IMG/VR virus record: IMGVR_UViG_3300042350_003419
Location: 17,975 to 81,974 of that record
DNA from: a virus
Lineage: Duplodnaviria; Caudoviricetes
Reading direction: 5' to 3' (one strand)
Length of the DNA stretch: 64,000 nt
Shown: piece after piece, positions 11,687 through 44,032 of the stretch
Layout: every line of letters begins with the position of its first letter
How positions within the stretch are numbered: position 1 is the stretch's first letter
Position numbers and translations under genes: made by a program
Notes under the pieces: model-generated
The model's database searches: none
What the model was told of the DNA's origin: nothing
Seen by the model: the letters and a program-made list of their open reading frames with translations, nothing else

Positions 11687-13117
11687 ATGTCAAGAATTAC
11701 AGGTAGTGACGCTAAGGGTTTGATGGAAGCGTATGCTGCAGTTTATGCTCCTCAAGAACTTACTGAAGAACAAATCTGGGAAGAAGTTGAGAACTGGGTC
11801 AACTCACTTCTAGAAGAGGGTTATGACCTGAGTGAGTATACCTGGGAAGAGATGTATGAGTCTTATTTAAATGAGTTTAGTGTCAGAGATGTTACTGCAG
11901 GAGCAAGACAAAATCTAAATAGAGCTGCCTCGACTGTTAGTGATATTGCAGGATCAGGATTACGAGGATATGCTGGCAAAACGACTACATCTACAAATCC
12001 AATATCTAGAACTTTTAATGCTGCTACTAGGGGAGTAAGAGATGCAGCAGCTGGGTTTGTAACAGGTAGAGGTTCTACTCCTGAAGCAAAACCTTCTTCT
12101 TCAAGCAAATCAGATCAAAAACCAGGAGTTTCAAATATTCCTGCAGGAACAAAAAATTCACCATATAACCAACAGAATTTGGGTGGAGACCAGTTTAAAG
12201 CATATAAAGCTGGTGGTGGTGATGCAGCAATGGCTAAAGGAAGTGGAACTGCTGCTGAGATAATCGCAAGAGGAAGAAAATCTTTAACCCCACCAGGTTC
12301 AGGGCTCCCTCCTGAAGCGCTGATGCGAGTTCCTGGACCAAAACTAACCGCAACTCAACCTGTTTCTCCCACAAGACCCGCTGCTGCTGCTCCTGCCGCT
12401 ACTAGACCTGCAGGACCAAAAGTTGCTCCAACAAAACCAGCACCAGCACCAACAAAACCAGCAGGGTCTGCAATGGACCAGTGGGCATCAACACCAGCAA
12501 ATAAACGTCTTGCCGCTGCCGCTGCAGAAAAGGCAAGAATTCGTGGAACTCAACAGACTGATAATCCTTTAATGAAGGATATGAGGTCCAGACTTCCTAT
12601 GAACTCTCCTTCAGTTCAATCTCCTGCAGTTTCTAACCTTGGTAAAGGTAATCAGTCCTTATCACAAAATCCAAATGCTTTTAAGGCAGCAACTCCATCT
12701 AAAGCAATTGCTGCTGCTCCTAGCACCTCTGCTGCTGCCTCTGGAAGCGTTGTACCTGCCACTGCCGCAATTGCCTCAAGCCCTAAACCAACCCCTGTGG
12801 CACCCAGACAGACCGCTAGAGAGAAGGTTCTAAACCAGTCCTATGAGTATGATGCTTTTGATCTAGTCCTTGAGTATCTCATCGACAACGAGCACGTAGA
12901 GACCGTAGATGAGGCACTTTATGTGATGATGGAGATGGACTCCGAGACTATTCTGGGAATAGTTTCCGAGCAATCTAATACTCTTATTACACCGGAACAA
13001 AGAAGAGCAGACGAACTGAAATATGGTATAAAGAGAACTACTCCAGTGCCTCCTCCAGTGCCTCCTGCTAAACCTGGTGGAGCGAAAGTAAAACCAGGTT
13101 CAAAGATGCCTCTATAA
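11687..13117 (+). CDS. putative internal virion protein with Pro/Ala-rich insert
   Basis: Late promoter; LMEAYAAVY, LLEEGYDLSEYTWEEM and DAFDLVLEYL motifs flank low-complexity sequence. Confidence 0.7.
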   Translation: MSRITGSDAKGLMEAYAAVYAPQELTEEQIWEEVENWVNSLLEEGYDLSEYTWEEMYESYLNEFSVRDVTAGARQNLNRAASTVSDIAGSGLRGYAGKTTTSTNPISRTFNAATRGVRDAAAGFVTGRGSTPEAKPSSSSKSDQKPGVSNIPAGTKNSPYNQQNLGGDQFKAYKAGGGDAAMAKGSGTAAEIIARGRKSLTPPGSGLPPEALMRVPGPKLTATQPVSPTRPAAAAPAATRPAGPKVAPTKPAPAPTKPAGSAMDQWASTPANKRLAAAAAEKARIRGTQQTDNPLMKDMRSRLPMNSPSVQSPAVSNLGKGNQSLSQNPNAFKAATPSKAIAAAPSTSAAASGSVVPATAAIASSPKPTPVAPRQTAREKVLNQSYEYDAFDLVLEYLIDNEHVETVDEALYVMMEMDSETILGIVSEQSNTLITPEQRRADELKYGIKRTTPVPPPVPPAKPGGAKVKPGSKMPL

Positions 13118-13223: not shown

Positions 13224-13679
13224 ATGAGCTATGAGAACCCATGGAAGTTTAATGGGGAAATCTTTGAGTCTCAGCATATAGGAGATTATTTTGGATTCGT
13301 ATATCTCATATCCTGTAAGACCACCGGTAGAAAATATATTGGACGTAAGTATCTTTGGCAGTTTAGAACACCAAAAGGAAAAAAAAGAAAAGTAAAGTCT
13401 GAATCAGATTGGAAAAATTATTATGGTTCTTGTCCTGAACTTAAGGAAGATATTACGAAATATGGTAAGGAATGTTTTGAAAGAAAAATAATATCATTAC
13501 ATAAAACCAAAGGTAAATGTAATTTTGAAGAAACACGACAACTGTTCCTAAATAATGTACTGACCGAATCGCTTGACACTGGAGTTCCTGCATACTACAA
13601 TAGTAACATACTCTCCAGATATTTTAGAAAGGATTATTTTGATGGAAACTTTGGAACAGACACTTCGGTCATCACATGA
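13224..13679 (+). CDS. GIY-YIG family nuclease
   Basis: GFVYLI...RKYIGRK...YYGS, FEE, YYNSNI. Confidence 0.8.
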   Translation: MSYENPWKFNGEIFESQHIGDYFGFVYLISCKTTGRKYIGRKYLWQFRTPKGKKRKVKSESDWKNYYGSCPELKEDITKYGKECFERKIISLHKTKGKCNFEETRQLFLNNVLTESLDTGVPAYYNSNILSRYFRKDYFDGNFGTDTSVIT

Positions 13680-13819: not shown

Positions 13820-14533
13820 ATGCGAATAGATCTTCATAACTTTTTTAAGCATTATGACGAAAATAACCCAAAGCATGTTGCAGCAGTAGAGCAACTTGAA
13901 GTGGATCTTGCGGACAAGAATCCTGATTTGATTGATGATACTTCAAACTGGGTTCGTATTTTCAGAACAAGACCAGTTTACGGAACAAAACCAGCAGATC
14001 CCGGTGTTCTTAATGTTCCTTACTACCCACAAACAGATAATTACAGAGATGCTCAAAGAACCTGTAATTCATCTGCTTGTGCGATGTGTTTAGAATACTT
14101 TAAACCAGGGACTCTTCAGGGAACAAAGGGTGATGACTCTTATATTCAAAAAGTATTTGCAATTGGTGACACCACTGATCATACCGTTCAGACAAAAGTT
14201 CTGGAAGGTTATGGAATTAAGTCACACTTTAGTTATAATCTTTCTTTTGCTGATCTTGATCGTGAGCTTGCTGCTGGGAGACCCGTTGTTATCGGGATCT
14301 ATCACAGGGGCACTCTATCTGCTCCTTCTGGTGGGCACATGGTTGTAGTGATTGGTAAGAGGGGTGAAGATTATGTGGTAAATGATCCTTATGGTTCTCT
14401 GAATGATGGATATACTGGTCCCGCAACAAATGGTAAGGGTGCCGTCTATAAGAAGTCTGATCTGATGTATCGTTGGTTGGAGAAAGGAAAAGATAAGACT
14501 GGATGGGGAAGGATCTTTAATGTAAAAAAGTAG
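13820..14533 (+). CDS. C39-like cysteine peptidase (putative endolysin N-part)
   Basis: LNVPYYPQ, RTCNSSACAM (Cys), GGHMVVVIG (His), VNDPYG. Confidence 0.85.
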   Translation: MRIDLHNFFKHYDENNPKHVAAVEQLEVDLADKNPDLIDDTSNWVRIFRTRPVYGTKPADPGVLNVPYYPQTDNYRDAQRTCNSSACAMCLEYFKPGTLQGTKGDDSYIQKVFAIGDTTDHTVQTKVLEGYGIKSHFSYNLSFADLDRELAAGRPVVIGIYHRGTLSAPSGGHMVVVIGKRGEDYVVNDPYGSLNDGYTGPATNGKGAVYKKSDLMYRWLEKGKDKTGWGRIFNVKK

Positions 14534-14564
14534 AAAGTTCTATTCTGAAAGAAGGAATAGAACT
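14505..14564 (+). promoter_or_regulatory. candidate -1 programmed ribosomal frameshift signal
   Basis: GGGGAAGGA, 10 nt, A_AAA_AAG (14524-14530), 5 nt, hairpin AGTTCTATTC/GAATAGAACT. Confidence 0.75.
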
Positions 14565-15000
14565 AATCAAAGAATTTGAAGGATGTCATTTAAAGGCATA
14601 CCCAGATCCTTTAACTGGAGGACTTCCAATTACGATTGGATGGGGAAGTACAAGAGACTTTAATTACACTCCATTTAAAAGAGATAAAGTCATTACTCAA
14701 GAGTATGCTGACCGTCTGTTAGAGCACGATGTATTGAATCGTTTTCTTCCTAAAATTTCTAAAATTCCCTATTGGGGTGAGATGAATGATAATCAAAGAG
14801 GAGCATTGCTCTCTTTTGCTTATAATCTTGGTGCTGATTTTTTTAACGCTCCTGGATTCAATACGATTACCAAAAAGTTAAAAGAAAAAGATTGGAAAGC
14901 AATTCCGGCAACTTTGGAAATGTATCGCAATCCTGGTAGTAAAGTGGAGGCAGGATTGAGAAGAAGACGAATTGCAGAAGGAAAACTCTGGGTGTCTTAA
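14521..15000 (+). CDS. GH24 phage lysozyme domain without its own start codon, in -1 frame to the peptidase
   Basis: Frame opens after TAA 14518-14520: EGIELIKEFEGCHLKAYPDPLTGGLPITIGWGST...ALLSFAYNLG...GLRRRRIAEGKLW; first canonical start (TTG 14734) lies after the catalytic E/D/T. Confidence 0.85.
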   Translation, partial: CKKVESSILKEGIELIKEFEGCHLKAYPDPLTGGLPITIGWGSTRDFNYTPFKRDKVITQEYADRLLEHDVLNRFLPKISKIPYWGEMNDNQRGALLSFAYNLGADFFNAPGFNTITKKLKEKDWKAIPATLEMYRNPGSKVEAGLRRRRIAEGKLWVS

Positions 15001-15188
15001 CTTTTTTCTTGATTATGAATCCAAATCTTTAAGTCTTTTACATACTTCCGTAATATTTCTGCTTGCATTAAGTGCCATTCATCCCCTGTCTTAATATATG
15101 TCTTGATGTGCTCGTCGATAGCATCAAGACATTTTTTAATGACAGGATTCCATGGTTCTCTAATTGGAGTGTTCCACTCTCTTGACAT
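14997..15188 (-). CDS. hypothetical protein
   Basis: 63-aa ORF MSREWNTPIREPWN; rare minus-strand gene. Confidence 0.65.
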   Translation of the reverse strand: MSREWNTPIREPWNPVIKKCLDAIDEHIKTYIKTGDEWHLMQAEILRKYVKDLKIWIHNQEKS

Positions 15189-15268: not shown

Positions 15269-15398
15269 GAAGAAATCCCTGTTATGAGCAGGGTAATTAT
15301 TATGAGTCTTTGATCGTGACAATTAGAGCCGTGGAAGGTGCCTTTTGAGAAAGAGGTGGACCCCCCTTCTATACGGATGCCGAATTCAATTAAACTTA

Positions 15399-16046
15399 AT
15401 GCTTAAAAACCTAACAAATGTAACCGTAGCGATTTTGGGTGCGGTTGCAACATCAGCGGCAACACTGCCAGCACCGAGTATGGCAACATCTTCAGCACTA
15501 CAACCGCCTTTCGCAATTGTTCCTGAAGGTCCTACTCAAGAGACAGAGACCAAAGAGGTTGTTCCCGAAAAACCTAAAGTAAAACGATTAGTTTGTAAAG
15601 GATGTAATACTAATGAGTCCCGTACTCTGGAATTCTTACAGAAACGAGGAATCAGTGACAAAAACGCCCTAGCAACCATTATGGGCAATATCCGACAAGA
15701 ATCTACCTTCACTCCTAATATCTGTGAAGGTGGTGCTAGAGTGCCTTATCACCAGTGTAGGAGTGGTGGGGTAGGAATACTCCAATGGACAAATGCTCCA
15801 AGATATTATGGTCTTGGTAAGTTTGCCGCTCGTATTGGGGGAGACCCTTCCACACTTGATACTCAATTGCAATATATGATGTATGAAGGTGATTGGAAGA
15901 TGATTGAGAATCAAATGAAAACACCTGGCAAATCCATTAATGATTATATGAGACTTGCTAAAAAATGGATACGTTGGGGGCATCATGGTGCCAGAACTGA
16001 CTTTGCTTATAATTATGCCAACCGACTGATCCTAGCAGAAGTTTGA
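15399..16046 (+). CDS. cell-wall hydrolase, phage tail lysozyme-like domain with signal peptide
   Basis: Hydrophobic N-terminus; ALATIMGNIRQES, GVGILQWT, LDTQLQY; likely ATG 15399. Confidence 0.8.
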   Translation: MLKNLTNVTVAILGAVATSAATLPAPSMATSSALQPPFAIVPEGPTQETETKEVVPEKPKVKRLVCKGCNTNESRTLEFLQKRGISDKNALATIMGNIRQESTFTPNICEGGARVPYHQCRSGGVGILQWTNAPRYYGLGKFAARIGGDPSTLDTQLQYMMYEGDWKMIENQMKTPGKSINDYMRLAKKWIRWGHHGARTDFAYNYANRLILAEV

Positions 16047-17211: not shown

Positions 17212-17324
17212 CTTTAGTGCCCTGATGCCTTATAGTGGTATCACGGGTGAAGGAGGTCCAAACTTCTTATAAATCCCACACCTCCCATGCCTCTCAACGA
17301 TGCACAAACAGGGAGGTTCCTTAT

Positions 17325-17397
17325 GTCCCGTTAGCTCAGGAGACAGAGCAATTCTCTTCTAAAGAATCGGTCGTGGGTGCGAATCCTACACGGGACG
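17325..17397 (+). tRNA. tRNA-Arg(TCT)
   Basis: GTCCCGT/ACGGGAC acceptor, loop CTTCTAA; atypical T-loop TGCGAAT. Confidence 0.85.
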
Positions 17398-17451
17398 CTT
17401 TCGAATAATGCTATATTACTTGTATAAATAAACACACTTAGGTCGAAAACA

Positions 17452-17550
17452 ATGTCTTTCCAAATGAACAAACAGATTATTACCAGCGATTGCCGCTATT
17501 GGCATATCGAGGGTACTCCCCTGTTTGCGAATATGGAAAAACATATGTAA
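17452..17550 (+). CDS. 32-aa small ORF
   Basis: Between late promoter (17423-17430) and terminator hairpin (~17574-17610). Confidence 0.4.
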   Translation: MSFQMNKQIITSDCRYWHIEGTPLFANMEKHM

Positions 17551-17732
17551 GATGTAATCCATAAAAGCAAAAGAAAGGGGAGAGAAACCAAAAGTTTTCT
17601 CCCCTTTTTTATTGCCTGTGACAGTTTCCTAAGTGTCCACCAATCTCCCCCCAGAGACCAAACGGTGATATTCTTAAAGGGTGGTTGAGAGACCACCAGC
17701 ACATCGACAACCGAATATTTTCCACATTATAT

Positions 17733-17805
17733 GGGTCTGTAACTCAGTTGGTAGAGTAGCGGGCTTTTAACCTGTAAGTCGTCGGTTCGATCCCGACCAG
17801 ACCCA
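17733..17805 (+). tRNA. tRNA-Lys(TTT)
   Basis: Cloverleaf, loop CTTTTAA. Confidence 0.93.
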
Positions 17806-17809
17806 TCGT

Positions 17810-17891
17810 GGGAGGATTTCCGAGTGGCTAAAGGAATCTGACTGTAAATCAGACGGCTCTGCCTTCGCAGGTTCGAATCCTGCTCCTCCCA
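17810..17891 (+). tRNA. tRNA-Tyr(GTA)
   Basis: Cloverleaf with long variable arm, loop CTGTAAA. Confidence 0.93.
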
Positions 17892-17895
17892 CCTT

Positions 17896-17969
17896 GACCC
17901 ATTAGTGTAGCGGTCTATCACGCCACCCTGTCACGGTGGAGATCACGGGTTCAAATCCCGTATGGGTCG
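17896..17969 (+). tRNA. tRNA-Asp(GTC)
   Basis: Cloverleaf, loop CTGTCAC. Confidence 0.93.
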
Positions 17970-18017
17970 TTGCTACTCTGCCTATGGAGTGTTCCTCCTT
18001 GGCGGTTGTAGCATCAA

Positions 18018-18089
18018 GTTCCTATCGACTAGCGGTTAGGTCACTACCCTTTCAAGGTGGCAGCACGGGTTCGAATCCCGTTAGGAATA
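18018..18089 (+). tRNA. tRNA-Glu(TTC)
   Basis: Cloverleaf, loop CTTTCAA. Confidence 0.93.
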
Positions 18090-18093
18090 CTAT

Positions 18094-18166
18094 GGAAACA
18101 TAGCTTAGTTGGTAAAGCATTCGACTGATAATCGAAAGACCACTGGTTCGAGTCCAGTTGTTTCCA
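18094..18166 (+). tRNA. tRNA-Ile(GAT)
   Basis: Cloverleaf, loop CTGATAA. Confidence 0.93.
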
Positions 18167-18168
18167 TT

Positions 18169-18258
18169 GGAAGTGTGGCAGAGTGGCTTAATGCAGCGGT
18201 TTGCTAAACCGCCGATGTCTTTAAGAGGCATCCGTTGGTTCAAATCCAACCACTTCCG
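18169..18258 (+). tRNA. tRNA-Ser(GCT)
   Basis: Long variable arm, loop TTGCTAA. Confidence 0.92.
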
Positions 18259-18262
18259 CCTC

Positions 18263-18334
18263 AGCAGTATAGCTCAGTGGTAGAGTACGGGTTTCATACG
18301 CCTATGGTCGGTAGTTCAAATCTACCTACTGCTA
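18263..18334 (+). tRNA. tRNA with CAT anticodon (Met or Ile2)
   Basis: AGCAGTA/TACTGCT acceptor, loop TTCATAC, weak anticodon stem. Confidence 0.85.
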
Positions 18335-18335
18335 T

Positions 18336-18409
18336 GTGTCGTTAGTCTAATGGTAAGACAGGAGATTGTGGTTCTCTGTATGAGGGTTCGATTCCCTCAC
18401 GGCACCCCA
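18336..18409 (+). tRNA. tRNA-His(GTG)
   Basis: Loop TTGTGGT, C discriminator, encoded CCA. Confidence 0.9.
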
Positions 18410-18410
18410 T

Positions 18411-18482
18411 TCTGAGGTCGCCAAGTGGTAAGGCAGCGGGTTTTGGTCCCGCCATTCGTGGGTTCGAATCCTACCCTCAGAA
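18411..18482 (+). tRNA. tRNA-Gln(TTG)
   Basis: Loop TTTTGGT. Confidence 0.92.
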
Positions 18483-18485
18483 TTT

Positions 18486-18559
18486 GTCCTCTTAGCTCAG
18501 TGGAATAGAGCAATCGGCTACGAACCGATGTGTCGTAGGTTCAAATCCTACAGAGGACG
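18486..18559 (+). tRNA. tRNA-Arg(ACG)
   Basis: Loop CTACGAA. Confidence 0.93.
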
Positions 18560-18602
18560 CTTGACAAACTTCTTAAAGTTTGTTACTATATAAATTGTTG
18601 GA

Positions 18603-18647
18603 GGTTAAGTCCCTGTTATGTCCTTATGAGATATATTACACTTAACC
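18603..18647 (+). ncRNA. candidate small structured RNA, copy 1
   Basis: GGTTAAGT/ACTTAACC outer stem, TATGTC/GATATA inner stem, loop CTTATGA; downstream of TTGACA-17-TACTAT (18561-18589). Confidence 0.55.
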
Positions 18648-18653
18648 CATCTT

Positions 18654-18726
18654 GGGGAATTAACTCAGTTGGTAGAGTATCGCCTTTGCAAGGCGGGTGT
18701 CAGGAGTTCGAGTCTCCTATTCTCCA
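18654..18726 (+). tRNA. tRNA-Ala(TGC)
   Basis: GGGGAAT acceptor with G3:U70, loop TTTGCAA. Confidence 0.93.
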
Positions 18727-18761
18727 TTGGAGATTTATTCTCCATATATAAAAGTGATAGA

Positions 18762-18806
18762 GCGTAAGTCCCTGTTATATCCTTATGAGGTATATCACAC
18801 TTATGC
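18762..18806 (+). ncRNA. candidate small structured RNA, copy 2
   Basis: GCGTAAGT/ACTTATGC outer stem, TATATC/GGTATA inner stem, loop CTTATGA. Confidence 0.55.
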
Positions 18807-18812
18807 CATCAT

Positions 18813-18884
18813 TCCGAGTAGCCCGCAAGGTGCGGGAGCAAACTGTTAATTTGTTATAGGTCAGTTCGATTCTGACACTCGGAG
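18813..18884 (+). tRNA. tRNA-Asn(GTT)
   Basis: Loop CTGTTAA, T-arm GTCAG-TTCGATT-CTGAC; atypical D-arm junction. Confidence 0.8.
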
Positions 18885-18938
18885 TTTTACCCTTGAAATA
18901 TGCTATTATTATAAATAGTAATAAAATATTTGTAGGGT

Positions 18939-19499
18939 ATGTCTAATAAAAAAGCAGTTTCTGATTATAGAAGAAGAGCAAAAGAATATGCTTTAAAAGC
19001 ATTTAAAGAAAAATGTGGAATATGTGGATATAATAAATGTATCGGGGCATTAGAGTTTCATCACTTAAATCCTGATGAAAAAGATTTTGGTTTATCTTCA
19101 AAAGGAGTAACTCGTGCTTGGAGTAAAGTTTCTGATGAACTCAAAAAATGTGTTTGTCTTTGTGCTAACTGTCACAGAGAAGTTCATAATGATATTACCA
19201 GTATTCCAGATGATGTGGTAAGATTTGATGAGGAATATACTATTTGGAAAAGTGAGTTTACTAAAAAAATGATTCCTTGTCCAGTATGTAATTCTGAAAT
19301 GTCTATTAGGCAGAAATATTGCTCTGATAAATGTGCTAAAAAGGTTAGAGAAAAGGCAAACTATCCAAGTGATGAAGAACTTTTAGAAATGGTTAAAAGT
19401 TATGGTTATTCTCATACTGGTAGAGTTTTTGGTGTAAATGGAAATTCTATTAAAAAAAGATTACAGCGACGAGGACTATTGACAACTACGTCAAAATAA
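18939..19499 (+). CDS. HNH homing endonuclease
   Basis: CGICGY...LEFHHLNP...CVCLCANCHREVH plus Zn-finger/HTH C-terminus; late promoter 18910-18917. Confidence 0.88.
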   Translation: MSNKKAVSDYRRRAKEYALKAFKEKCGICGYNKCIGALEFHHLNPDEKDFGLSSKGVTRAWSKVSDELKKCVCLCANCHREVHNDITSIPDDVVRFDEEYTIWKSEFTKKMIPCPVCNSEMSIRQKYCSDKCAKKVREKANYPSDEELLEMVKSYGYSHTGRVFGVNGNSIKKRLQRRGLLTTTSK

Positions 19500-19666
19500 T
19501 GTAACATATATAAGTCGGTTCTGGGTGGAACTCCCAGAAGTTCCGTTAGGGACTGTCCTTTGTAGGTTCGATACCTACATCTTCCTTATGGGAGATAAGA
19601 ACGGCTACTGGAAACCTTACTAAATCCTAAGTTTTCTTAGGTCGGGGATTTGATCACCCCCGTGTT

Positions 19667-19737
19667 GCCCTATAAGCATTGTGGTGATGCAGCAGTTTTG
19701 TAAACTGCAGAGAACAGTTCAATTCTGTTATGGGGCT
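19667..19737 (+). tRNA. tRNA-Thr(TGT)
   Basis: Loop TTTGTAA. Confidence 0.88.
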
Positions 19738-19815
19738 TGACATAATACTCATTATGTCATATACTTCATATGTCCGTGTGAAGGCAAGTGCCGGGAGAGT
19801 CAAATCTCCCACATT

Positions 19816-19887
19816 GCGGATTTAATTCAGTGGTAGAATGGCTGCCTTCCAAGCAGTTCGTCAGGGGTTCGAATCCCCTAATCCGCT
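19816..19887 (+). tRNA. tRNA-Gly(TCC)
   Basis: GCGGATT acceptor, loop CTTCCAA. Confidence 0.93.
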
Positions 19888-19945
19888 TGCTCCATAATTC
19901 CTGGAGCTTCTAAATAAACACTGTAGTTGTAAATCTTAACACAAT

Positions 19946-20830
19946 ATGACTTTTCAAAATATTATTGCTGCCGGTGTAGTTGCTGCGTCTTCTATCGCTT
20001 CTCCTGCAATGGCACAAGTCACCAGCGTTAAGCAACTGGGTGATGTTCAACCCACCCAGTGGTCTTATCAAGCAATCACTAATCTGGTAGAGCGTTACGG
20101 TTGTGTTGCTGGTTATCCTGATGGCACTTTCCGTCCCGGTCAACCTGCTACTCGTGCTGAACTTGCTGCTCTGACGAATGCCTGCCTTGACCGCATTAGT
20201 GAGTATCAAACCGCTGCTGATGCTGCTCTTGCCGCTGCCCTGCGTGCTGAATTCTCTAAAGAGATTGCTGCAACCAATACTCGTGTGAGTGCTCTTGAGG
20301 TTGCTGCTGCTCAAAAGGCACAAGGAGTTGGTAACTATCTAGGTGTTGGTGTGCTTCTCGATCAGCAAGGTGTTGCTGGCAATGGTTACAGTGCTCAGCG
20401 TACTGTTTCTGGTGCCACGATTCAAGCACGATATGCCGTGAAGAACTTCACTAATCTGAATGCTGTTTCGGTCCGCCCCTATGCCAACCTTGTTGGTAGT
20501 CCTGCTGGTCAAATCGGTGCTGGTGGTGGTGCTCTGGTTTCCTATGATTGGAGTATTTCCCGTGCCAAGAGTGGTGTGAGTCGTGCCAATGTGTATGCTG
20601 GTGCTGGTTATCAGATTCCTTTCGTGAATGAAACTGCTGCTAACTATCAGTCTGCTGTCGGCAATCGTGGTCAATTTGTTCTTGCTCTTGGAGTCGAAGG
20701 TCGTATCAGCAATTCACTCGTTGGTTTTGCTGACCTGAAGTTCCCTACCACCAATTCTGCTAACAGTTACGGTGCTACCAATGGAACTTACTCACCAGTC
20801 TTCACTACTGGTCTTGGTTTCAAGTTCTGA
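19946..20830 (+). CDS. SLH-domain outer-membrane protein (cyanobacterial porin-like N-terminus)
   Basis: Signal peptide; DVQPTQWSYQAITNLVERYGCVAGYPDGTFRP...TRAE; C-terminal GLGFKF beta-signal. Confidence 0.85.
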   Translation: MTFQNIIAAGVVAASSIASPAMAQVTSVKQLGDVQPTQWSYQAITNLVERYGCVAGYPDGTFRPGQPATRAELAALTNACLDRISEYQTAADAALAAALRAEFSKEIAATNTRVSALEVAAAQKAQGVGNYLGVGVLLDQQGVAGNGYSAQRTVSGATIQARYAVKNFTNLNAVSVRPYANLVGSPAGQIGAGGGALVSYDWSISRAKSGVSRANVYAGAGYQIPFVNETAANYQSAVGNRGQFVLALGVEGRISNSLVGFADLKFPTTNSANSYGATNGTYSPVFTTGLGFKF

Positions 20831-20909
20831 TATTTGAATACATAGTGTGAATTGGGGAGTTGACAACGACTCCCCTTTTCAGTATAATAAGTATCGAGTC
20901 AGGAGGATT

Positions 20910-21068
20910 ATGTCTCTTATATCCCAAATGGACCGCCAAATGGTTATTGAAGCACTTGAATATTACGTTCAGAAACTCAAAGAAGATAACTGCACCGAGA
21001 ATTCTATTACTGCATTTCAAACACTTCTTAATTGGATAGAACTGGAGTATTATAAGAATGAAAATTAA
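20910..21068 (+). CDS. hypothetical protein
   Basis: AGGAGG SD, sigma70 promoter upstream. Confidence 0.65.
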   Translation: MSLISQMDRQMVIEALEYYVQKLKEDNCTENSITAFQTLLNWIELEYYKNEN

Positions 21069-21222
21069 TTTGTGGTTCTGCTCCGAAATGAATCATTGGA
21101 GGTGGACTCTCTGCGATAGTTCTCGTCCAATTCGTAAACAGGAATCTGGGCAAAGAGAAAATCTCCGTGATGCTATGAGCGATATTGCCAATACTGTAGA
21201 GTATATGCTAGGATCTCATTGA
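21058..21222 (+). CDS. hypothetical protein
   Basis: MKINLWFCSEMNHWRWTL..., 54 aa, below the ORF-track cutoff. Confidence 0.55.
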   Translation: MKINLWFCSEMNHWRWTLCDSSRPIRKQESGQRENLRDAMSDIANTVEYMLGSH

Positions 21223-21229
21223 TTTTATT

Positions 21230-21302
21230 GCCCGATGACCCAGCAAGTGAAGGGACCTGATTTACACTCAGACATCGACGGGAGCATTACCTGTATCGGG
21301 CA
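21230..21302 (+). tRNA. tRNA-Val(TAC), atypical
   Basis: GCCCGAT/ATCGGGC acceptor, loop TTTACAC, T-loop AGCATTA. Confidence 0.75.
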
Positions 21303-21334
21303 CTTATTATAAATACTTGAAAAGTATTGGTGTA

Positions 21335-21769
21335 ATGGAAAAACTTTATAAATTATTAAGTGATACTCAAGCATCACTTTTTTTGCTATTCCAAAAAACC
21401 TGGGTCTATCACTGGCATGTTGTAGGACCAGACTTTAAGCAAATTCATGATTTGTTTGGAGATCAATATGAAGCAATTCAAGAAGAAGTTGATCGTATAG
21501 CAGAACATATGAGATTTTTGGGTATTAAACCTATCAGCTCTTTATCTAGAGTTCTGGAAGTCTCTGGTGTTGGGGAAGCAAAAACTAATATTTCTGAAAT
21601 GGAAATGATTAAAGATTTACTTGATGGGCATAAAAAGATTATAGATATGTTAGGTGAAGTTGCTGAAGAAGCAGAAGCACAAAAGTCAAGAGGAACTGTT
21701 AATCTTGTTGATGATTTAAATGAAGCACACGGTAAGTTCGTTTGGATGCTTCGTTCATTTACTGAATAA
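21335..21769 (+). CDS. dps: Dps ferritin-like DNA protection protein
   Basis: KTWVYHWHVVGPDFKQIHDLF...DRIAEH...HGKFVWML. Confidence 0.9.
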   Translation: MEKLYKLLSDTQASLFLLFQKTWVYHWHVVGPDFKQIHDLFGDQYEAIQEEVDRIAEHMRFLGIKPISSLSRVLEVSGVGEAKTNISEMEMIKDLLDGHKKIIDMLGEVAEEAEAQKSRGTVNLVDDLNEAHGKFVWMLRSFTE

Positions 21770-21781
21770 TTAATTGTAAAG

Positions 21782-22042
21782 ATGGAAAATTTAAAAATTA
21801 GATGTAAATCTTGCGGAAGTGAGATAGAAGGAAAGTCTGGAAAAACAGTTGCGTGTGGATGCCCTAATATGGCAACTGTTCGTAATAATGAAAATATTGC
21901 GGCACTTGACTTATCAAAGGTTGTCATAATAAACTATATGAGTACCAAAGAGAAATCTAATGTTCTTACTAATGAAGACCTTGCCTTTCAAGAAGCAAGG
22001 CGTCGGCGTAAAGTAAGACGCTTAGATTTTGAAGTCCGATAA
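21782..22042 (+). CDS. small Zn-ribbon hypothetical protein
   Basis: CKSCG...CGC. Confidence 0.65.
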   Translation: MENLKIRCKSCGSEIEGKSGKTVACGCPNMATVRNNENIAALDLSKVVIINYMSTKEKSNVLTNEDLAFQEARRRRKVRRLDFEVR

Positions 22043-22052
22043 GGACTTATTT

Positions 22053-22135
22053 GGAGAGAGTCCGGTTGGTCGAGGACACCGCCTTGAAAGCGGCTGGGTT
22101 TAAAAGCTTCGCAGGTTCGATTCCTGTTCTCTCCG
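22053..22135 (+). tRNA. tRNA-Ser(TGA)
   Basis: Long variable arm, loop CTTGAAA. Confidence 0.9.
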
Positions 22136-22249
22136 TTACAAATGCTACAAAATTTTAGATTTTTTTAATCTATATTTTTGTATCAACACATAGTTGACAT
22201 TTGCAAAATACTTACTAAGATAACTAGTAAGTATCAAACTAAATTCCCA

Positions 22250-22402
22250 ATGGATGATCACACTTACCAAAATTGGGTGAAAATTAAAGCAACCTTTGAA
22301 AACTCTGGTAATACTGACAATACATTTTACCGAAGAGCGTGTGAAATAGTCAAAACCAAAAAAGATCCTCTCGCAAAGTATCTTGGAGATAAGAATGACT
22401 AA
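22250..22402 (+). CDS. hypothetical protein
   Basis: MDDHTYQNWVKIK... Confidence 0.55.
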   Translation: MDDHTYQNWVKIKATFENSGNTDNTFYRRACEIVKTKKDPLAKYLGDKND

Positions 22403-22473
22403 CACACTTATAGTTGCTGTTATTCTTCTCGGATTAATTTCATTCTTCATTCAGTGGAGTCTTACGCACGCAT

Positions 22474-22659
22474 ATGGATAAGCAAAGATATAGTTTCGCT
22501 ATGACTTGCTTTGTAAGGTCTTATGGCAGACATGTCTTGAATGATAATCACATCAAACAGTTTTGTAGGGAATGGTCTGAATGGGGGGTAGATGCTCCAT
22601 TAGGCGATATTGTAGATCAATACTTCCATTATGAATATAAGAATTGGAGAGGAATATGA
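22474..22659 (+). CDS. hypothetical protein
   Basis: 61 aa; resembles 46341..46547 (AMTCFVRSYG vs IMSSFARTYG; VDQYF...NW vs VDLYF...NW). Confidence 0.6.
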   Translation: MDKQRYSFAMTCFVRSYGRHVLNDNHIKQFCREWSEWGVDAPLGDIVDQYFHYEYKNWRGI

Positions 22660-22846
22660 TTTTTCACATTGTGGAATATCTGGCACAAAGTCCAGTTTGG
22701 TTGGGTCTTTGTGGGGCAGGATTGACAGTTGCCCCGATTATGGGTATAATGCTTATACACAAACAAAATGGTAAGTAACTTGTTTTGAGATAATCCCGAA
22801 ACTTATTACTTTTATAAATAGTTATAAGAAAAGGTTTTTATCTTTT

Positions 22847-23401
22847 ATGAAAAGGCATACCACTAAAGAACAACTTTTGAGTGCTTGTGTAGGATCAAAT
22901 GGTCCAGCACAAGTTTTAAAAAAGTTAGGTTTGTGTGAAAATGGAGCAACTCGTGCTTATCTTAAAAAAATTGCTTTGCAATATGATGTAGAAATACCAA
23001 AGTATGAAACTCCAAGAAAATATGAATTAATTGAAAAAAAATGCCCTGTTTGTGGTAAAATATTTACAGCATCAAAGGGTAACAAAAGAGAAAAAACAGT
23101 TTGTTCTCGTGCCTGCTCTAATACACATTTTAGAAGCGGGGAAAATAATCCAAACTTTAAAGATGGATTTGATGGTGATAAAGCATATAGAAAAATATGC
23201 TTCAAATATCATCCAAAAAAATGCTGCATTTGTGGATTTGATCACATTGTTGAAGTTCATCATATGGACTGTAACAAGGAAAATAATAACCCAAATAATT
23301 TAATTCCTCTGTGCCCAAATCACCATAGAATGTTTCATTCAAGATATCGTCAGTTAGTATCTCCACTAATTGAAGACTATATAAAATATAACCAGGAGTA
23401 A
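22847..23401 (+). CDS. HNH homing endonuclease
   Basis: CCICG...VEVHHMD...NNPNNLIPLCPNHH; GENNPNF motif; late promoter 22813-22820. Confidence 0.88.
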   Translation: MKRHTTKEQLLSACVGSNGPAQVLKKLGLCENGATRAYLKKIALQYDVEIPKYETPRKYELIEKKCPVCGKIFTASKGNKREKTVCSRACSNTHFRSGENNPNFKDGFDGDKAYRKICFKYHPKKCCICGFDHIVEVHHMDCNKENNNPNNLIPLCPNHHRMFHSRYRQLVSPLIEDYIKYNQE

Positions 23402-23463
23402 GTCAGCGGTAGACGGCACCGTTTGGGGCGGTGAAGACGTTGGTTCGATCCCAACCTTCTGGA
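23392..23463 (+). tRNA. tRNA-Pro(TGG)
   Basis: CCAGGAG/CTTCTGG acceptor, loop TTTGGGG; overlaps the HNH stop codon. Confidence 0.88.
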
Positions 23464-24264: not shown

Positions 24265-24392
24265 AGTGGTGGAGTCAAGTTCAAACCCTGATTTGCCCTC
24301 GTCGTATGGGCATTATAAGTGACGACTGGTGCGGATGGGACTCTCTCCCGCCTGGTTTCTTATTTCCAGTCAAAGAATAAGTGGCGAGCCTA
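24265..24392 (+). ncRNA. wcaG RNA motif
   Basis: TGGTGCGGATGGG...CCCGCC.GGTTTCTTATTTCC...AAGAATAAGTGGCG matches the cyanophage wcaG motif as recalled; lies upstream of gmd/fcl; boundaries approximate. Confidence 0.7.
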
Positions 24393-24459
24393 AAGACCCC
24401 AAAGGGGGAGTTGCATAAACTCTCCTTTTTTGCTATAATAATAAAAAAGTAGTTCTTAT

Positions 24460-41830: not shown

Positions 41831-41914
41831 GCATTCATACCTATTGACAGGGATCCCTGACAGTGCTATGATAAATACAACAACAAGTTAAGGAATGTAA
41901 CAAAACCTTAACGT

Positions 41915-41995
41915 TGTCCTCTGCCTAACCGAGACCTATGGGGAGGTTAAACACAGTCTCTCATACCCACGATGGAGGGTGTCGTGGGGAATACT
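41915..41995 (+). ncRNA. PhotoRC-II RNA motif (psbA leader)
   Basis: CCTAACCGAGACC...GTCTCTCATACC...GGAGGG in the psbA 5' UTR, matching the motif as recalled; boundaries approximate. Confidence 0.7.
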
Positions 41996-42042
41996 TGTAC
42001 CGTTCAGTTCCCCCTGGACACATACTTACCCTTTAACGAAAA

Positions 42043-42795
42043 ATGACTGCTACAATCGCTACACGTCGCCCAACTACTTCGGCGTGGAACTCATTCTGTG
42101 AATGGATTACTTCAACGAACAACCGCCTTTATGTTGGTTGGTTCGGAACTCTGATGATTCCAACGTTGCTTGCTGCAACTATTTGTTTCATCGTCGCCTT
42201 CATTGCCGCACCCCCGGTGGACATTGACGGTATTCGTGAACCTGTTGCTGGTTCACTCATGTACGGAAACAACATCATCTCTGGTGCTGTTGTTCCTTCA
42301 AGCAACGCCATTGGTCTTCACTTCTATCCCATCTGGGAAGCAGCAAGTCTTGATGAATGGCTTTATAACGGTGGACCTTTCCAACTTGTTGTATTTCACT
42401 TCCTCATTGGCATCTACTGCTATATGGGACGTGAATGGGAACTCTCATACCGTCTAGGTATGCGTCCTTGGATTATGGTTGCTTACAGTGCTCCTGTTGC
42501 TGCTGCATCTGCTGTATTCCTGGTTTATCCTTTCGGACAAGGTTCATTCTCTGATGCGATGCCTCTGGGCATCTCCGGAACATTCAACTACATGCTTGTG
42601 TTCCAGGCAGAGCACAACATCCTGATGCACCCCTTCCATATGCTTGGAGTTGCTGGTGTGTTCGGTGGTTCTCTGTTCAGTGCTATGCACGGTTCTCTTG
42701 TGACTTCTTCACTGGTTCGTGAAACCACAGAAACTGAGTCACAGAATTATGGTTATAAGTTTGGTCAAGAAGAAGAGACTTATAACATCGTGGCT
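42043..42795 (+). CDS. psbA: photosystem II D1 protein, exon 1
   Basis: [28 protein letters not shown]. Confidence 0.97.
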
Positions 42796-43004
42796 TGACA
42801 GAGCGGGTCACGTTAAACTGGGTGAACTGCTGGAAACCTAAGTCCTTTATGGATATGGCAATCAGCATCCAAGTCCTAGATACATCTAGGAAAGGTTCAG
42901 AGACTACCTGAGGGATACAGTTCCCTTAATAACAGGCAAGAGCGCCCAGCACCTTTAATAGGTGAAGATATAGTCCAACCCTTAAGGAAACTTTTGGACA
43001 ATTG
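42796..43004 (+). mobile_element. group I intron (209 nt, no ORF) in psbA
   Basis: P1 CGTGGCT/GGGTCACG with U.G at splice site; P AACTGCTGGAAA, Q AATCAGCA, R GTTCAGAGACTA, S AAGATATAGTCC; ends in G; removal restores NIVA-AHGYF. Confidence 0.93.
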
Positions 43005-43334
43005 GCTCACGGTTACTTTGGACGACTCATTTTCCAATATGCTTCGTTCAATAATTCTCGTTCACTTCACTTCTTCCTCGCCGCTTGGCCCGTTGTGGGC
43101 ATCTGGTTTACTGCTCTAGGCGTAAGCACTATGGCATTCAACCTCAACGGACTAAATTTCAATCAGAGTATTCTGGATAGTCAAAACCGGGTAATTCCTA
43201 CTTGGGCGGACATATTGAACAAATCTGGGTTGGGTATGGAAGTTATGCACGAGAGAAATGCACATAATTTTCCTTTAGATTTGGCTGCAGCAGAAACAAC
43301 TTCGGTTGCTCTAACTGCTCCTTCTATCGGTTGA
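43005..43334 (+). CDS. psbA: photosystem II D1 protein, exon 2
   Basis: [20 protein letters not shown]...[13 protein letters not shown]. Confidence 0.97.
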
Positions 43335-43360
43335 TATAATCACTAAATTGTGATATAATG

Positions 43361-43393
43361 AAGAGACCTGTAAAGGTCTCTTTTTTATAAATA
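43361..43393 (+). terminator. terminator fused to late promoter
   Basis: AAGAGACC-tgtaa-AGGTCTCTT, T-run, TATAAATA. Confidence 0.75.
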
Positions 43394-43402
43394 ATAATAT
43401 CC

Positions 43403-44032
43403 GTGAGCAGACCACAAATGAATATAAAATATACTGATAAGGATAGGGAGATTTGGAAACAAATGTATTTGTCTGGTTTATCCTCCCACGAAATTGGAAG
43501 ACAACTAAACATACCAAGAGTTTCCGTATATAAGTATCTTAAAACAATTGGTGTAACAAGAAACTTTTCTGAATGGCAGGTTGGTAAAGAACCTTGGAAT
43601 AAAGGAAAGAAAACAGGTCAAAAAGTTTGGAATAAAGGATTAACCAAAGAAACTGATGAAAGAGTCAAAAAATATGGAGAAAAAATAAAGGGCAATAATT
43701 GCCAAAATCCTTGGAAAGAAAGATATTTTGATACTGATTATTTGTATTTGGTTATTGTTTATCTTGAAGGTAAACTGGTTTATAAGGTTGGAAGAAGTTT
43801 CAACAAATTAGCAAATCACACAAAAAATAAATTACATAGTGTAATTAAAATATGGAAAGGAATTCATTATCAAGTTCATCATCTTGAAAAGTTCATTCAT
43901 CAAAAATACCAAGATTATAAAATTGATTTTGAATCCAAGGACGCTGGACATACTGAGTGTTATATGGTAGAATTGCCCATAACTGAAATCATCAACCTTA
44001 CAGAAAAAACATTAAAACATTATGATTACTAA
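43403..44032 (+). CDS. putative free-standing homing endonuclease (HTH, NUMOD-like repeats, GIY-YIG-like C-domain)
   Basis: HTH N-terminus; PWNKGKK/VWNKGLTKETD; YLYLV...YKVGRS...LE...GHTECY. Confidence 0.72.
   Translation: MSRPQMNIKYTDKDREIWKQMYLSGLSSHEIGRQLNIPRVSVYKYLKTIGVTRNFSEWQVGKEPWNKGKKTGQKVWNKGLTKETDERVKKYGEKIKGNNCQNPWKERYFDTDYLYLVIVYLEGKLVYKVGRSFNKLANHTKNKLHSVIKIWKGIHYQVHHLEKFIHQKYQDYKIDFESKDAGHTECYMVELPITEIINLTEKTLKHYDY

Follow-up and report, generated by a model that had tools for sequence, protein, structure and literature searches.

In this study, we analyzed a stretch of 64,000 nucleotides (nt) of a tailed virus (Duplodnaviria; Caudoviricetes), which corresponds to positions 17,975 to 81,974 of the IMG/VR record IMGVR_UViG_3300042350_003419 and is called the window below. 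It contains a lysin locus, in which a gene for a C39-like peptidase is followed by the reading frame of a lysozyme that lacks a start codon. Our data indicate that this locus is very probably a cassette for -1 programmed ribosomal frameshifting of the 'reversed dnaX' type, giving products of 237 and 393 amino acids (aa). Both in the window and in about a hundred relatives including the cultured phage S-PM2, translation of the start-less lysozyme most likely depends entirely on ribosomes slipping into the -1 frame. The same core reading, a frameshift joining the peptidase to a start-less lysozyme, had previously been derived from the letters of the window (the sequence-only reading) and was now supported by four lines of evidence: the split of the relatives into those with a slippery heptamer and those with an own lysozyme start, an open linker, a covarying 3' stem and natural in-frame fusions.

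According to the proposed mechanism, most ribosomes translating the late peptidase gene would terminate at the TAG codon at 14531-33 and release a 237-aa protein composed of an N-module and a papain-like C39 peptidase. A fraction of the ribosomes would pause at an 11-bp hairpin located 5 nt downstream of the heptamer, while two tRNA-Lys(UUU) occupy AAA-AAG. Both tRNAs would then re-pair one base back, on AAA-AAA, and translation would go on in the -1 frame from GTA (Val) via a short linker into a GH24 muramidase, yielding a bifunctional peptidase-lysozyme of 393 aa. From the sequence comparisons described below we infer the slipping itself, its efficiency, its stimulation by the stem and an action of both products on the host peptidoglycan at lysis. 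The fusion protein and a set ratio of the two products are likewise predicted.

Anatomy of the lysin locus

The features of the locus are compiled in Table 1. The heptamer, the stop codon adjoining it, the TAA codon closing the -1 frame, the hairpin and an element resembling a Shine-Dalgarno (SD) sequence were all recovered where the sequence-only reading had placed them. The last codons of the peptidase open reading frame (ORF) are GTA AAA AAG TAG, with six As at 14524-14529. Behind the TAA codon at 14518-14520, the -1 frame reads CKKVESSILKEGIELIKEFEG... up to the TAA codon at 14998-15000 (159 residues); the reading of this frame from 14518-14520 onward is given as CKKVESSILKEGIELIKEFEGCHLKAYPDPLTGGLPITIGWG... 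No ATG, GTG or TTG codon is found between the TAA codon at 14518-14520 and the FEG motif with the catalytic region of the lysozyme frame. Merely ATT, CTG, ATA and ATC occur as near-start codons in this part of the window, and the earliest listed ORF of the lysozyme frame begins at 14734.

Table 1. Elements of the lysin locus and the gene of the cognate tRNA, with their positions in the window
Feature	Position	Strand	Remark
Peptidase ORF, zero frame	13820..14533	+	237 aa; predicted short product
N-terminal helical module of the peptidase ORF	13820-13972	+	~50 aa
Papain-like Peptidase_C39_2 domain	residues 64-191, 14009-14392	+	Pfam PF13529
SD-like GGGGAAGGA	14505..14513	+	10 nt 5' of the heptamer
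TAA closing the -1 frame	14518..14520	+	just 5' of the slip site
Slippery heptamer A_AAA_AAG	14524..14530	+	in phase, GTA AAA AAG
Zero-frame stop TAG	14531..14533	+	abuts the heptamer
3' hairpin, 11-bp stem	14536..14564	+	7-nt loop, 5-nt spacer
-1-frame continuation, linker VESSILKEG, then GH24 lysozyme	14530..15000	+	156 residues added
GH24 Pfam match	14569-14979	+	PF00959
Stop of the lysozyme frame, TAA	14998-15000	+	
tRNA-Lys (anticodon UUU)	17732..17807	+	phage-encoded; would slip on the heptamer

The identities of both domains were established by Pfam profile matches. Residues 64-191 of the zero-frame product matched Peptidase_C39_2 (PF13529) with 53.3 bits (cut-off 24), in agreement with the C39-like peptidase initially suspected, and the ORF includes the motifs CNSSACAMC and GGHMVVV, which presumably play a catalytic role. 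The -1 frame gave 83.9 bits (cut-off 22.3) with Phage_lysozyme (PF00959), covering the whole profile (1-125 of 125), and thus encodes the complete GH24 lysozyme that had been proposed to lack any ATG, GTG or TTG ahead of its catalytic region. Its motif string is EFEG...YPD...TIGWG, in which we take the Glu of FEG and a downstream Asp to be the catalytic residues. The predicted fusion amounts to 237 + 156 = 393 aa with the junction ...FNVKK/VESSILK; the size of about 393 aa and the junction peptide given by the sequence-only reading are correct on this basis. Both ORFs of the window are spanned in order by a single profile of 405 positions, phrog_3617, whose positions 1-235 cover the peptidase and 243-404 the lysozyme part. 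The N-terminal residues 2-51 of the peptidase are 50% identical (E 3e-15) to the N-terminus of a stand-alone lysozyme of phage DSL-LC03.

All sequencing runs were compared as contigs, not as raw reads. A 2199-nt contig of a DNA run, possibly the source sample itself, covered 13925-15100 with 0 differences. The IMG/VR contigs of 14 listed relatives (L005-L018) agreed with the window in AAAAAAGTAG and in both stem arms, with differences only just 3' of the stem in L010-L018. Hence, the six As at 14524-14529, on which the -1 relation of the two frames depends, were present in the DNA-run contig and in the contigs of relatives, and a seventh A was not seen there. The six As are not an assembly slip.

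Two further genes adjoin the locus. Directly upstream (13224-13679) lies a gene for a SegE-like GIY-YIG homing endonuclease (180.6 bits), a neighborhood that fits the mosaic make-up of the locus described below. On the other side, a third cell wall hydrolase is encoded at 15345-16046 (Phage tail lysozyme PF18013, 63.7 bits), the product of which has a hydrophobic, signal-like N-terminus.

Junctions, 3' stems and tRNA supply

The survey of related loci comprised 168 sequences with 112 unique junctions, namely the window, 160 IMG/VR loci and seven GenBank loci. From IMG/VR we took the 80 top-ranking loci among 540 peptidase relatives and, likewise, the 80 top-ranking loci among 350 relatives of the fusion protein of phage ACG-2014f. 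Relative to the peptidase, 83 unique junctions had the lysozyme in the -1 frame, 17 had it in the zero frame and none in the +1 frame; the other 12 junctions had no downstream lysozyme. Thus, the homologs are neither all in-frame fusions nor all equipped with an independent lysozyme start, two outcomes that had been named as arguing for a different interpretation.

An in-phase heptamer was present in 65 of the 83 unique -1-frame junctions; together with an open -1 frame it was found in 99 sequences, which represent these 65 junctions. In 54 of them the open lysozyme frame contained no ATG, nor was any ATG, GTG or TTG found within 10 nt of the peptidase stop. Conversely, all 18 -1-frame junctions without heptamer possessed an ATG (17) or GTG (1) overlapping the peptidase stop, and among the junctions without an own start none departed from NNA AAA AAG. 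This comparison of heptamer and own start is not circular. Elsewhere in these ORFs, AAA accounts for 61% of the Lys codons (670/1103) and A for 27% of the third codon positions, from which the probability of NNA AAA AAG occurring by chance at a KK dipeptide was calculated to be approximately 6%. The zero-frame stop followed the heptamer immediately in 55 of the 65 junctions (TAG 48, TAA 5, TGA 2) and one codon later in the remaining 10.

The linker between the heptamer and the LIK motif of the lysozyme was variable in these 65 junctions: 13 lengths from 12 to 28 codons were counted, rich in S, T, P and N. Not a single stop codon occurred in the -1 frame of the 966 linker codons, versus 111 and 103 in the other two frames, and the filter for an open linker was failed by none of the 65 junctions. 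The linker therefore behaves like translated sequence. Moreover, 44 of 45 unique junctions possessed an intact lysozyme ORF of 157-173 codons, the remaining one ending at a contig edge.

The hairpin of the window is formed by the arms 14536-14546 and 14554-14564 with the loop 14547-14553 and has a folding energy of -12.9 kcal/mol (z = -4.5); only one of 200 shuffled sequences folded equally well. For a context of 101 nt around the junction, z was -3.07. A perfect hairpin of 10 bp beginning 5 nt downstream of the heptamer had been postulated for the window and does exist, extended by one U-G pair to 11 bp. Among the relatives, the first paired base was found at a median of +6 nt past the heptamer (42 unique junctions). 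The 3' arm was invariably placed where the lysozyme domain starts, over the G-[VI]-x-L-I codons (those for G-I-E-L in the window), while the 5' arm lay in the variable linker and loop lengths ranged from 7 to about 56 nt. At gathering thresholds, the junction matched none of the Rfam families.

At least six unrelated stem sequences were discerned, e.g., AGTTCTATTC, CAACACCAC, CGACATCACA, GCCAACCAAC, CCCACTAC and a local CTCCCCG stem. One consensus structure for all stem families could not be established, as the registers differ by 3-6 nt. For this reason, we compared cognate with non-cognate arms and counted paired positions within a single family. Over 61 unique arm pairs, the mean duplex energy was -17.0 kcal/mol for cognate arms versus -9.2 kcal/mol for non-cognate arms. 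In one stem family of 10 sequences, 96.4% of the cells were able to pair, versus 29-53% when the partner was slid. The compensatory changes that had been suggested as a check of the hairpin were detected in two pairs of this family (G-C to A-U and U-A to C-G), and its seven cells with both sides changed were reached by none of 500 shuffles. Judged from these sequences, the 3' stem covaries.

Three relatives with own start and without heptamer (L075, L138 and L144) had no stem, with energies between -1.3 and -2.9 kcal/mol versus a median of -15.5 kcal/mol in the 65 heptamer junctions, and it was likewise absent from S-SRM01, which has an own start, too. It was kept in in-frame alleles with seven As (-21 to -22 kcal/mol) and in in-frame relatives that retain the heptamer. 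A sub-clade with an NDIPL linker (L027, L029, L036, L048, L019) disclosed a second pairing of 12 bp (ATGACATCCCTC/GAGGGATGTCAT) about 20-75 nt past the heptamer, which is situated on the FEGCH codons and interleaved with the usual stem. In this sub-clade, the RNA might fold into an H-type pseudoknot; the window lacks the interleaved second pairing.

The tRNA supply was considered as well. The window encodes 17 tRNAs, among them no Lys-CUU. They form an array at 17281-23463, which includes the Lys-UUU gene and is headed by a match to the abiF RNA motif (17281-17317). A role of the phage tRNA-Lys(UUU) in frameshifting is conceivable. As a proxy of the host, we used a metagenome-assembled genome (MAG) of Cyanobium, which was picked for a psbA gene 92% identical to that of the window and may not be the host. 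Its sole Lys tRNA among 41 tRNA matches was Lys-UUU, the MAG being incomplete and devoid of several expected tRNAs. About half of the bacteria have a single tRNA-Lys, which is named as the basis of the shiftiness of A_AAA_AAG in an excerpt of PMC5009743.

Alternative layouts, competing explanations and mosaic origin

Several relatives encode both enzymes in other arrangements. In ACG-2014f, the peptidase and lysozyme domains reside in one frame of 405 aa, and S-CREM1 (phrog_10051) has a 393-aa ORF with the reversed order, lysozyme before peptidase. Five of the 168 sequences (L107-L110 and L111) contain seven As instead of six and read in frame through ...KKVE..., which is identical to the predicted shift junction. 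These contigs may be natural alleles or homopolymer errors. The ACG-2014f type (L085, L088-L091) and L106 are in-frame fusions that have retained an in-phase A_AAA_AAG; their -1 frame closes one codon further on (AAA AAA GTC TGA), so that slipping would truncate the protein, which is the classical dnaX orientation. A small local hairpin lies 6 nt downstream in the ACG-2014f type; it is weak (z -1.7 in L085, -1.1 in L088). Other relatives use ATGA or GTGA overlaps for a separate lysozyme.

Among cultured phages, both the original and the re-sequenced record of S-PM2 show GCA AAA AAG TAA and a start-less lysozyme in the -1 frame; the 'putative lysin' annotated in the record is an internal fragment of 72 aa. 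In S-CAM7 (L304, 1592-1640), a start-less -1-frame lysozyme is located behind GTT TTT TTT, i.e., U_UUU_UUU within a run of eight Ts. This candidate slip site precedes the peptidase stop by 6 nt and is followed by a GTAGAACC/GGTTCTAC hairpin 5 nt downstream, which makes S-CAM7 a candidate for a different slip site with the same logic. Here, too, the annotated 'lysin' is a fragment (90 aa). The stand-alone lysozymes of DSL-LC03 (L086) and DSL-LC02 (L004) carry their own copy of the N-module of about 50 aa, which is consequently common to both enzymes. The idea that the lysozyme requires this module was weakened by lysozymes of the S-SRM01 type, which start at MKIPEP...LIKEFEG and do not possess it.

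An AlphaFold model was calculated for the in-frame homolog L107 on the basis of a 63-row alignment (mean pLDDT 84.5). In it, a small helical N-module and a papain-like domain are joined to a lysozyme domain by a disordered linker (233-241); with a pTM of 0.53 and pLDDT values below 50 in the linker, the arrangement of the domains is uninformative. In Foldseek searches, the lysozyme domain of the model matched phage GH24 endolysins with target-normalised TM-scores up to 0.88, and the peptidase domain the papain-like Alr0975 of Nostoc (E 8e-5).

We considered whether the lysozyme might be expressed by transcriptional slippage, in which the RNA polymerase would add one A to the A6 run and a subset of the mRNAs would be in frame without any ribosomal shift. 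That the slip site is a homopolymer run, that in-frame A7 alleles exist and that S-CAM7 has its T8 run at the equivalent place would all suit this explanation, and Thermus dnaX makes use of it, as mentioned in a section of PMC5009743. However, the run is never longer, and every recoding-dependent junction, i.e., without an own start, ends in AAG. Six As are short for productive transcriptional slippage in bacteria. Moreover, two own-start relatives have lost AAA-AAG without having a longer run that would feed the lysozyme frame. The covarying stem 5-8 nt downstream is the hallmark of ribosomal shifting and would still be untranscribed while the polymerase is on the run. Taken together, we regard transcriptional slippage as very improbable.

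Independent initiation is another explanation, by which a separate lysozyme would be made from a non-canonical or nearby GTG or TTG start or by termination and reinitiation at the peptidase stop. Relatives indeed use ATGA and GTGA overlaps, a GTG or TTG lies within 10 nt of the stop in eight of the 65 unique heptamer junctions, and the 3' arm of one stem family holds AAGGAG ahead of the Ile codon of LIK. AAGGAG is absent from the other stem families, though, and 54 of the 65 junctions are without any candidate start, the window offering only the four codons named above. Independent initiation would also leave unexplained why the -1 frame is open across 12-28 variable codons from the heptamer onward and why heptamer and stem are lost exactly where an ATG appears. 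It is thus a very unlikely source of the lysozyme. An artefact or decay, be it an indel introduced by assembly into one in-frame gene or a lysozyme remnant without expression, is effectively refuted. Even though homopolymers are error-prone and A7 versions exist, the same six As recur in 99 sequences (65 unique junctions) as well as in the DNA-run contig and both S-PM2 records. An intact lysozyme ORF is present in all but one of 45 unique junctions, and that of the window scores far above the Pfam cut-off.

A number of observations weigh against programmed frameshifting at this locus. The string AAAAAAG occurs 37 times in the window versus 39.5 times expected, and AAAAAAGTAG twice versus 0.53 times, a number of at least two being reached by 10 of 100 shuffles. 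The heptamer motif alone is therefore not beyond chance, while its phase, position and conservation are; since the string has chance frequency, the case rests on context and comparison. Possible starts in the lysozyme frame were found in 11 of the 65 heptamer junctions. In eight of them this was only a GTG or TTG no more than 10 nt from the stop; the other three had an ATG, that of S-SRM01, at the stop, being a real own start. The stem of S-PM2 encloses a long loop and its z value is weak (-1.05). The A7 contigs could be homopolymer errors or hint at slippage on the DNA or RNA level. A single tRNA-Lys in the host is suggestive, as the result of one incomplete MAG. Five RNA runs contained only small shares of the stretch, and the contigs from three of them, which belonged to own-start (ATGA) relatives of about 94% identity, ended at 14511, short of the junction. 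Finally, the lysozymes of some relatives, which are 88-96% identical to that of the window, have an own ATG or GTG; because of this, fusion to the peptidase is not obligatory for lysozyme activity.

The SD-like element belongs to the same side of the balance. AAGGA is located 10 nt 5' of the heptamer in the window, and the sequence-only reading had combined it with the heptamer and the hairpin to a dnaX-like triad. In the 63 unique heptamer junctions compared, the W-G-R codons under this site varied freely, Gly being encoded by GGT in 31 and Arg by CGN in 22 and by AGG in three. The energy of the duplex with the anti-SD sequence was -6.1 kcal/mol in heptamer junctions versus -6.6 kcal/mol in relatives without heptamer, i.e., pairing was no stronger. 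Hence, heptamer and 3' hairpin of the triad stood, while the SD-like stimulator is not conserved at synonymous sites and is, as far as these alignments go, unsupported as a conserved element, though not excluded.

To follow the layouts through the family, a FastTree phylogeny of the peptidase was calculated (168 rows; 23 of 115 inner branches starred). Nineteen rows, the marine in-frame fusions, made up one clade. The frameshift layout was by far the most frequent one in the second clade (97 of 149 rows), with the other layouts scattered in it, the starred branches forcing at least four departures to an own start. On the tree, 23 changes of the layout were counted, versus 64.7 for shuffled labels. 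The peptidase of the window is 95-99% identical to those of L006-L018, whose lysozymes share just 62-66% identity with the window's. Its lysozyme, on the other hand, is 88-96% identical to those of L138, L144, L158 and S-SRM01, all of which have own starts and peptidases with 78-79% identity. These split identities place an exchange point at or just after the stem, near LIKEFEG. By this comparison, the locus of the window is mosaic, and a lysozyme body which is self-starting elsewhere would here be expressed solely via the frameshift cassette.

We put forward, tentatively, that the cassette might be an evolvable setter of the product ratio at lysis. Single-base indels would flip the layouts between shift-to-extend (window, S-PM2), shift-to-truncate (ACG-2014f, L106), constitutive fusion (A7) and uncoupled genes (ATGA overlap) and thereby tune the amounts of peptidase alone and of bifunctional enzyme, while tRNA-Lys(UUU) and the translational state of the host would modulate the slip rate. 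If so, the composition of the lysins would track host physiology. The four interchangeable architectures are a natural series for the rise, reversal and loss of frameshift cassettes.

Known systems and genome setting

The E. coli dnaX gene, from which tau and gamma are produced, resembles the lysin locus in that it has the same A_AAA_AAG, a simple 3' stem-loop a few nt further on and two products with a common N-terminal part. No site in E. coli is more prone to shifting than A_AAA_AAG, and some bacteria have a reversed dnaX layout, the long product being made by shifting and a zero-frame stop directly following the site (both according to an excerpt of PMC5009743). The window corresponds to this reversed layout, as its long product would arise via the shift and its zero-frame stop adjoins the site, while the classical orientation is met in ACG-2014f and L106. 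The locus differs from dnaX by encoding phage cell wall hydrolases instead of a polymerase subunit, by a 5' SD-like stimulator that is not conserved, and by a 3' stem arm lying inside the coding sequence of the downstream domain, with a loop of 7 to about 56 nt.

A_AAA_AAG is also used by insertion sequences of the IS3 family (IS911, IS150). Their OrfA/OrfAB arrangement is similar with respect to a -1 shift shortly before the first ORF ends, a downstream ORF without efficient start, the same heptamer and a 3' structure, the last of which is described for IS911 in a part of PMC5009743. Unlike these elements, the locus of the window is not mobile, its products are predicted wall enzymes, and it has a simple hairpin and not a three-way junction.

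The conserved -1 frameshift of tailed phages is that of the tail assembly chaperone, known as G/GT in lambda. It shares with the lysin locus a -1 shift in a late gene, a short and a C-terminally extended protein, and conservation over divergent phages. The slip site is another one, however, a hairpin is not required, and structural chaperones are made instead of lytic enzymes. Endolysins with two products are known from enterococcal Lys170, clostridial CTP1L and mycobacteriophage Ms6 LysA, where internal starts are used. One lysis locus with a long and a short product of common sequence is found there, too, but it depends on a second initiation without change of frame, and it is the C-terminal part, not the N-terminal one, that makes up the short product. 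The lysins of phrog_3617 (ACG-2014f) and phrog_10051 (S-CREM1) share both catalytic domains and the N-module with the predicted fusion of the window; they are encoded by single ORFs, whereas the halves in the window reside in different frames and need recoding.

In a full-text literature search, recoding was nowhere described for a cyanophage lysin and, for any endolysin gene, in a one-line prediction only. A study of the S-PM2 virion proteome was not among the titles listed, no search aimed at it having been made. The one-line prediction concerns genes 39/40 of the Alteromonas virus vB_AspP-H4/4, for which a -1 frameshift at a slippery sequence involving the endolysin gene is predicted (PMC5658483). 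This virus differs from the window in being a podovirus, in having an internal virion protein as the downstream partner, and in resting on one line without comparative support. Thus, the mechanism is classical and the gene class is unusual. For annotation, this matters insofar as the lysozymes of S-PM2 and S-CAM7 are recorded as a 'putative lysin' of 72-90 aa starting from an internal Met, and that of the window would be unannotated or truncated in the same way. Judged from the sequences, the real products are probably the peptidase and a bifunctional lysin of about 390 aa. Lysis of picocyanobacteria by such phages matters for aquatic carbon turnover, and lysis by T4-like cyanophages is poorly known; with S-PM2 on WH7803, a cultured model exists within the family.

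The window is part of a virus contig of 81,974 bp, and its gene content is that of a T4-like cyanomyovirus, including nrdA, nrdB, the 17-tRNA array, a sugar-modification cluster and a psbA gene with a group I intron. Among named phages, Kyanoviridae of Synechococcus are nearest to it, while psbA is closest to Cyanobium MAGs (92-93%). All sampled words of the stretch were present in 15 DNA runs from freshwater or lakes, any of which may be the source.

A 476-aa ORF (11687-13117), which is flanked by nrdB and the homing endonuclease gene and contains much Ala, Pro and Ser, had no Pfam match. The psbA gene is interrupted (41909-44032): its ORF at 42043-42798 spans only the first ~200 positions of the profile, a group I intron (RF00028, 97.9 bits) was recognized at 42744-42997, and a 209-aa ORF without Pfam match lies nearby at 43403-44032. 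A PhotoRC-II RNA motif is situated upstream of psbA (41909-42002). Another RNA motif, wcaG (82.1 bits), precedes the gene for a GDP-mannose dehydratase at 24293-24452, and the only other AAAAAAGTAG of the window, at 24443, lies inside this leader.

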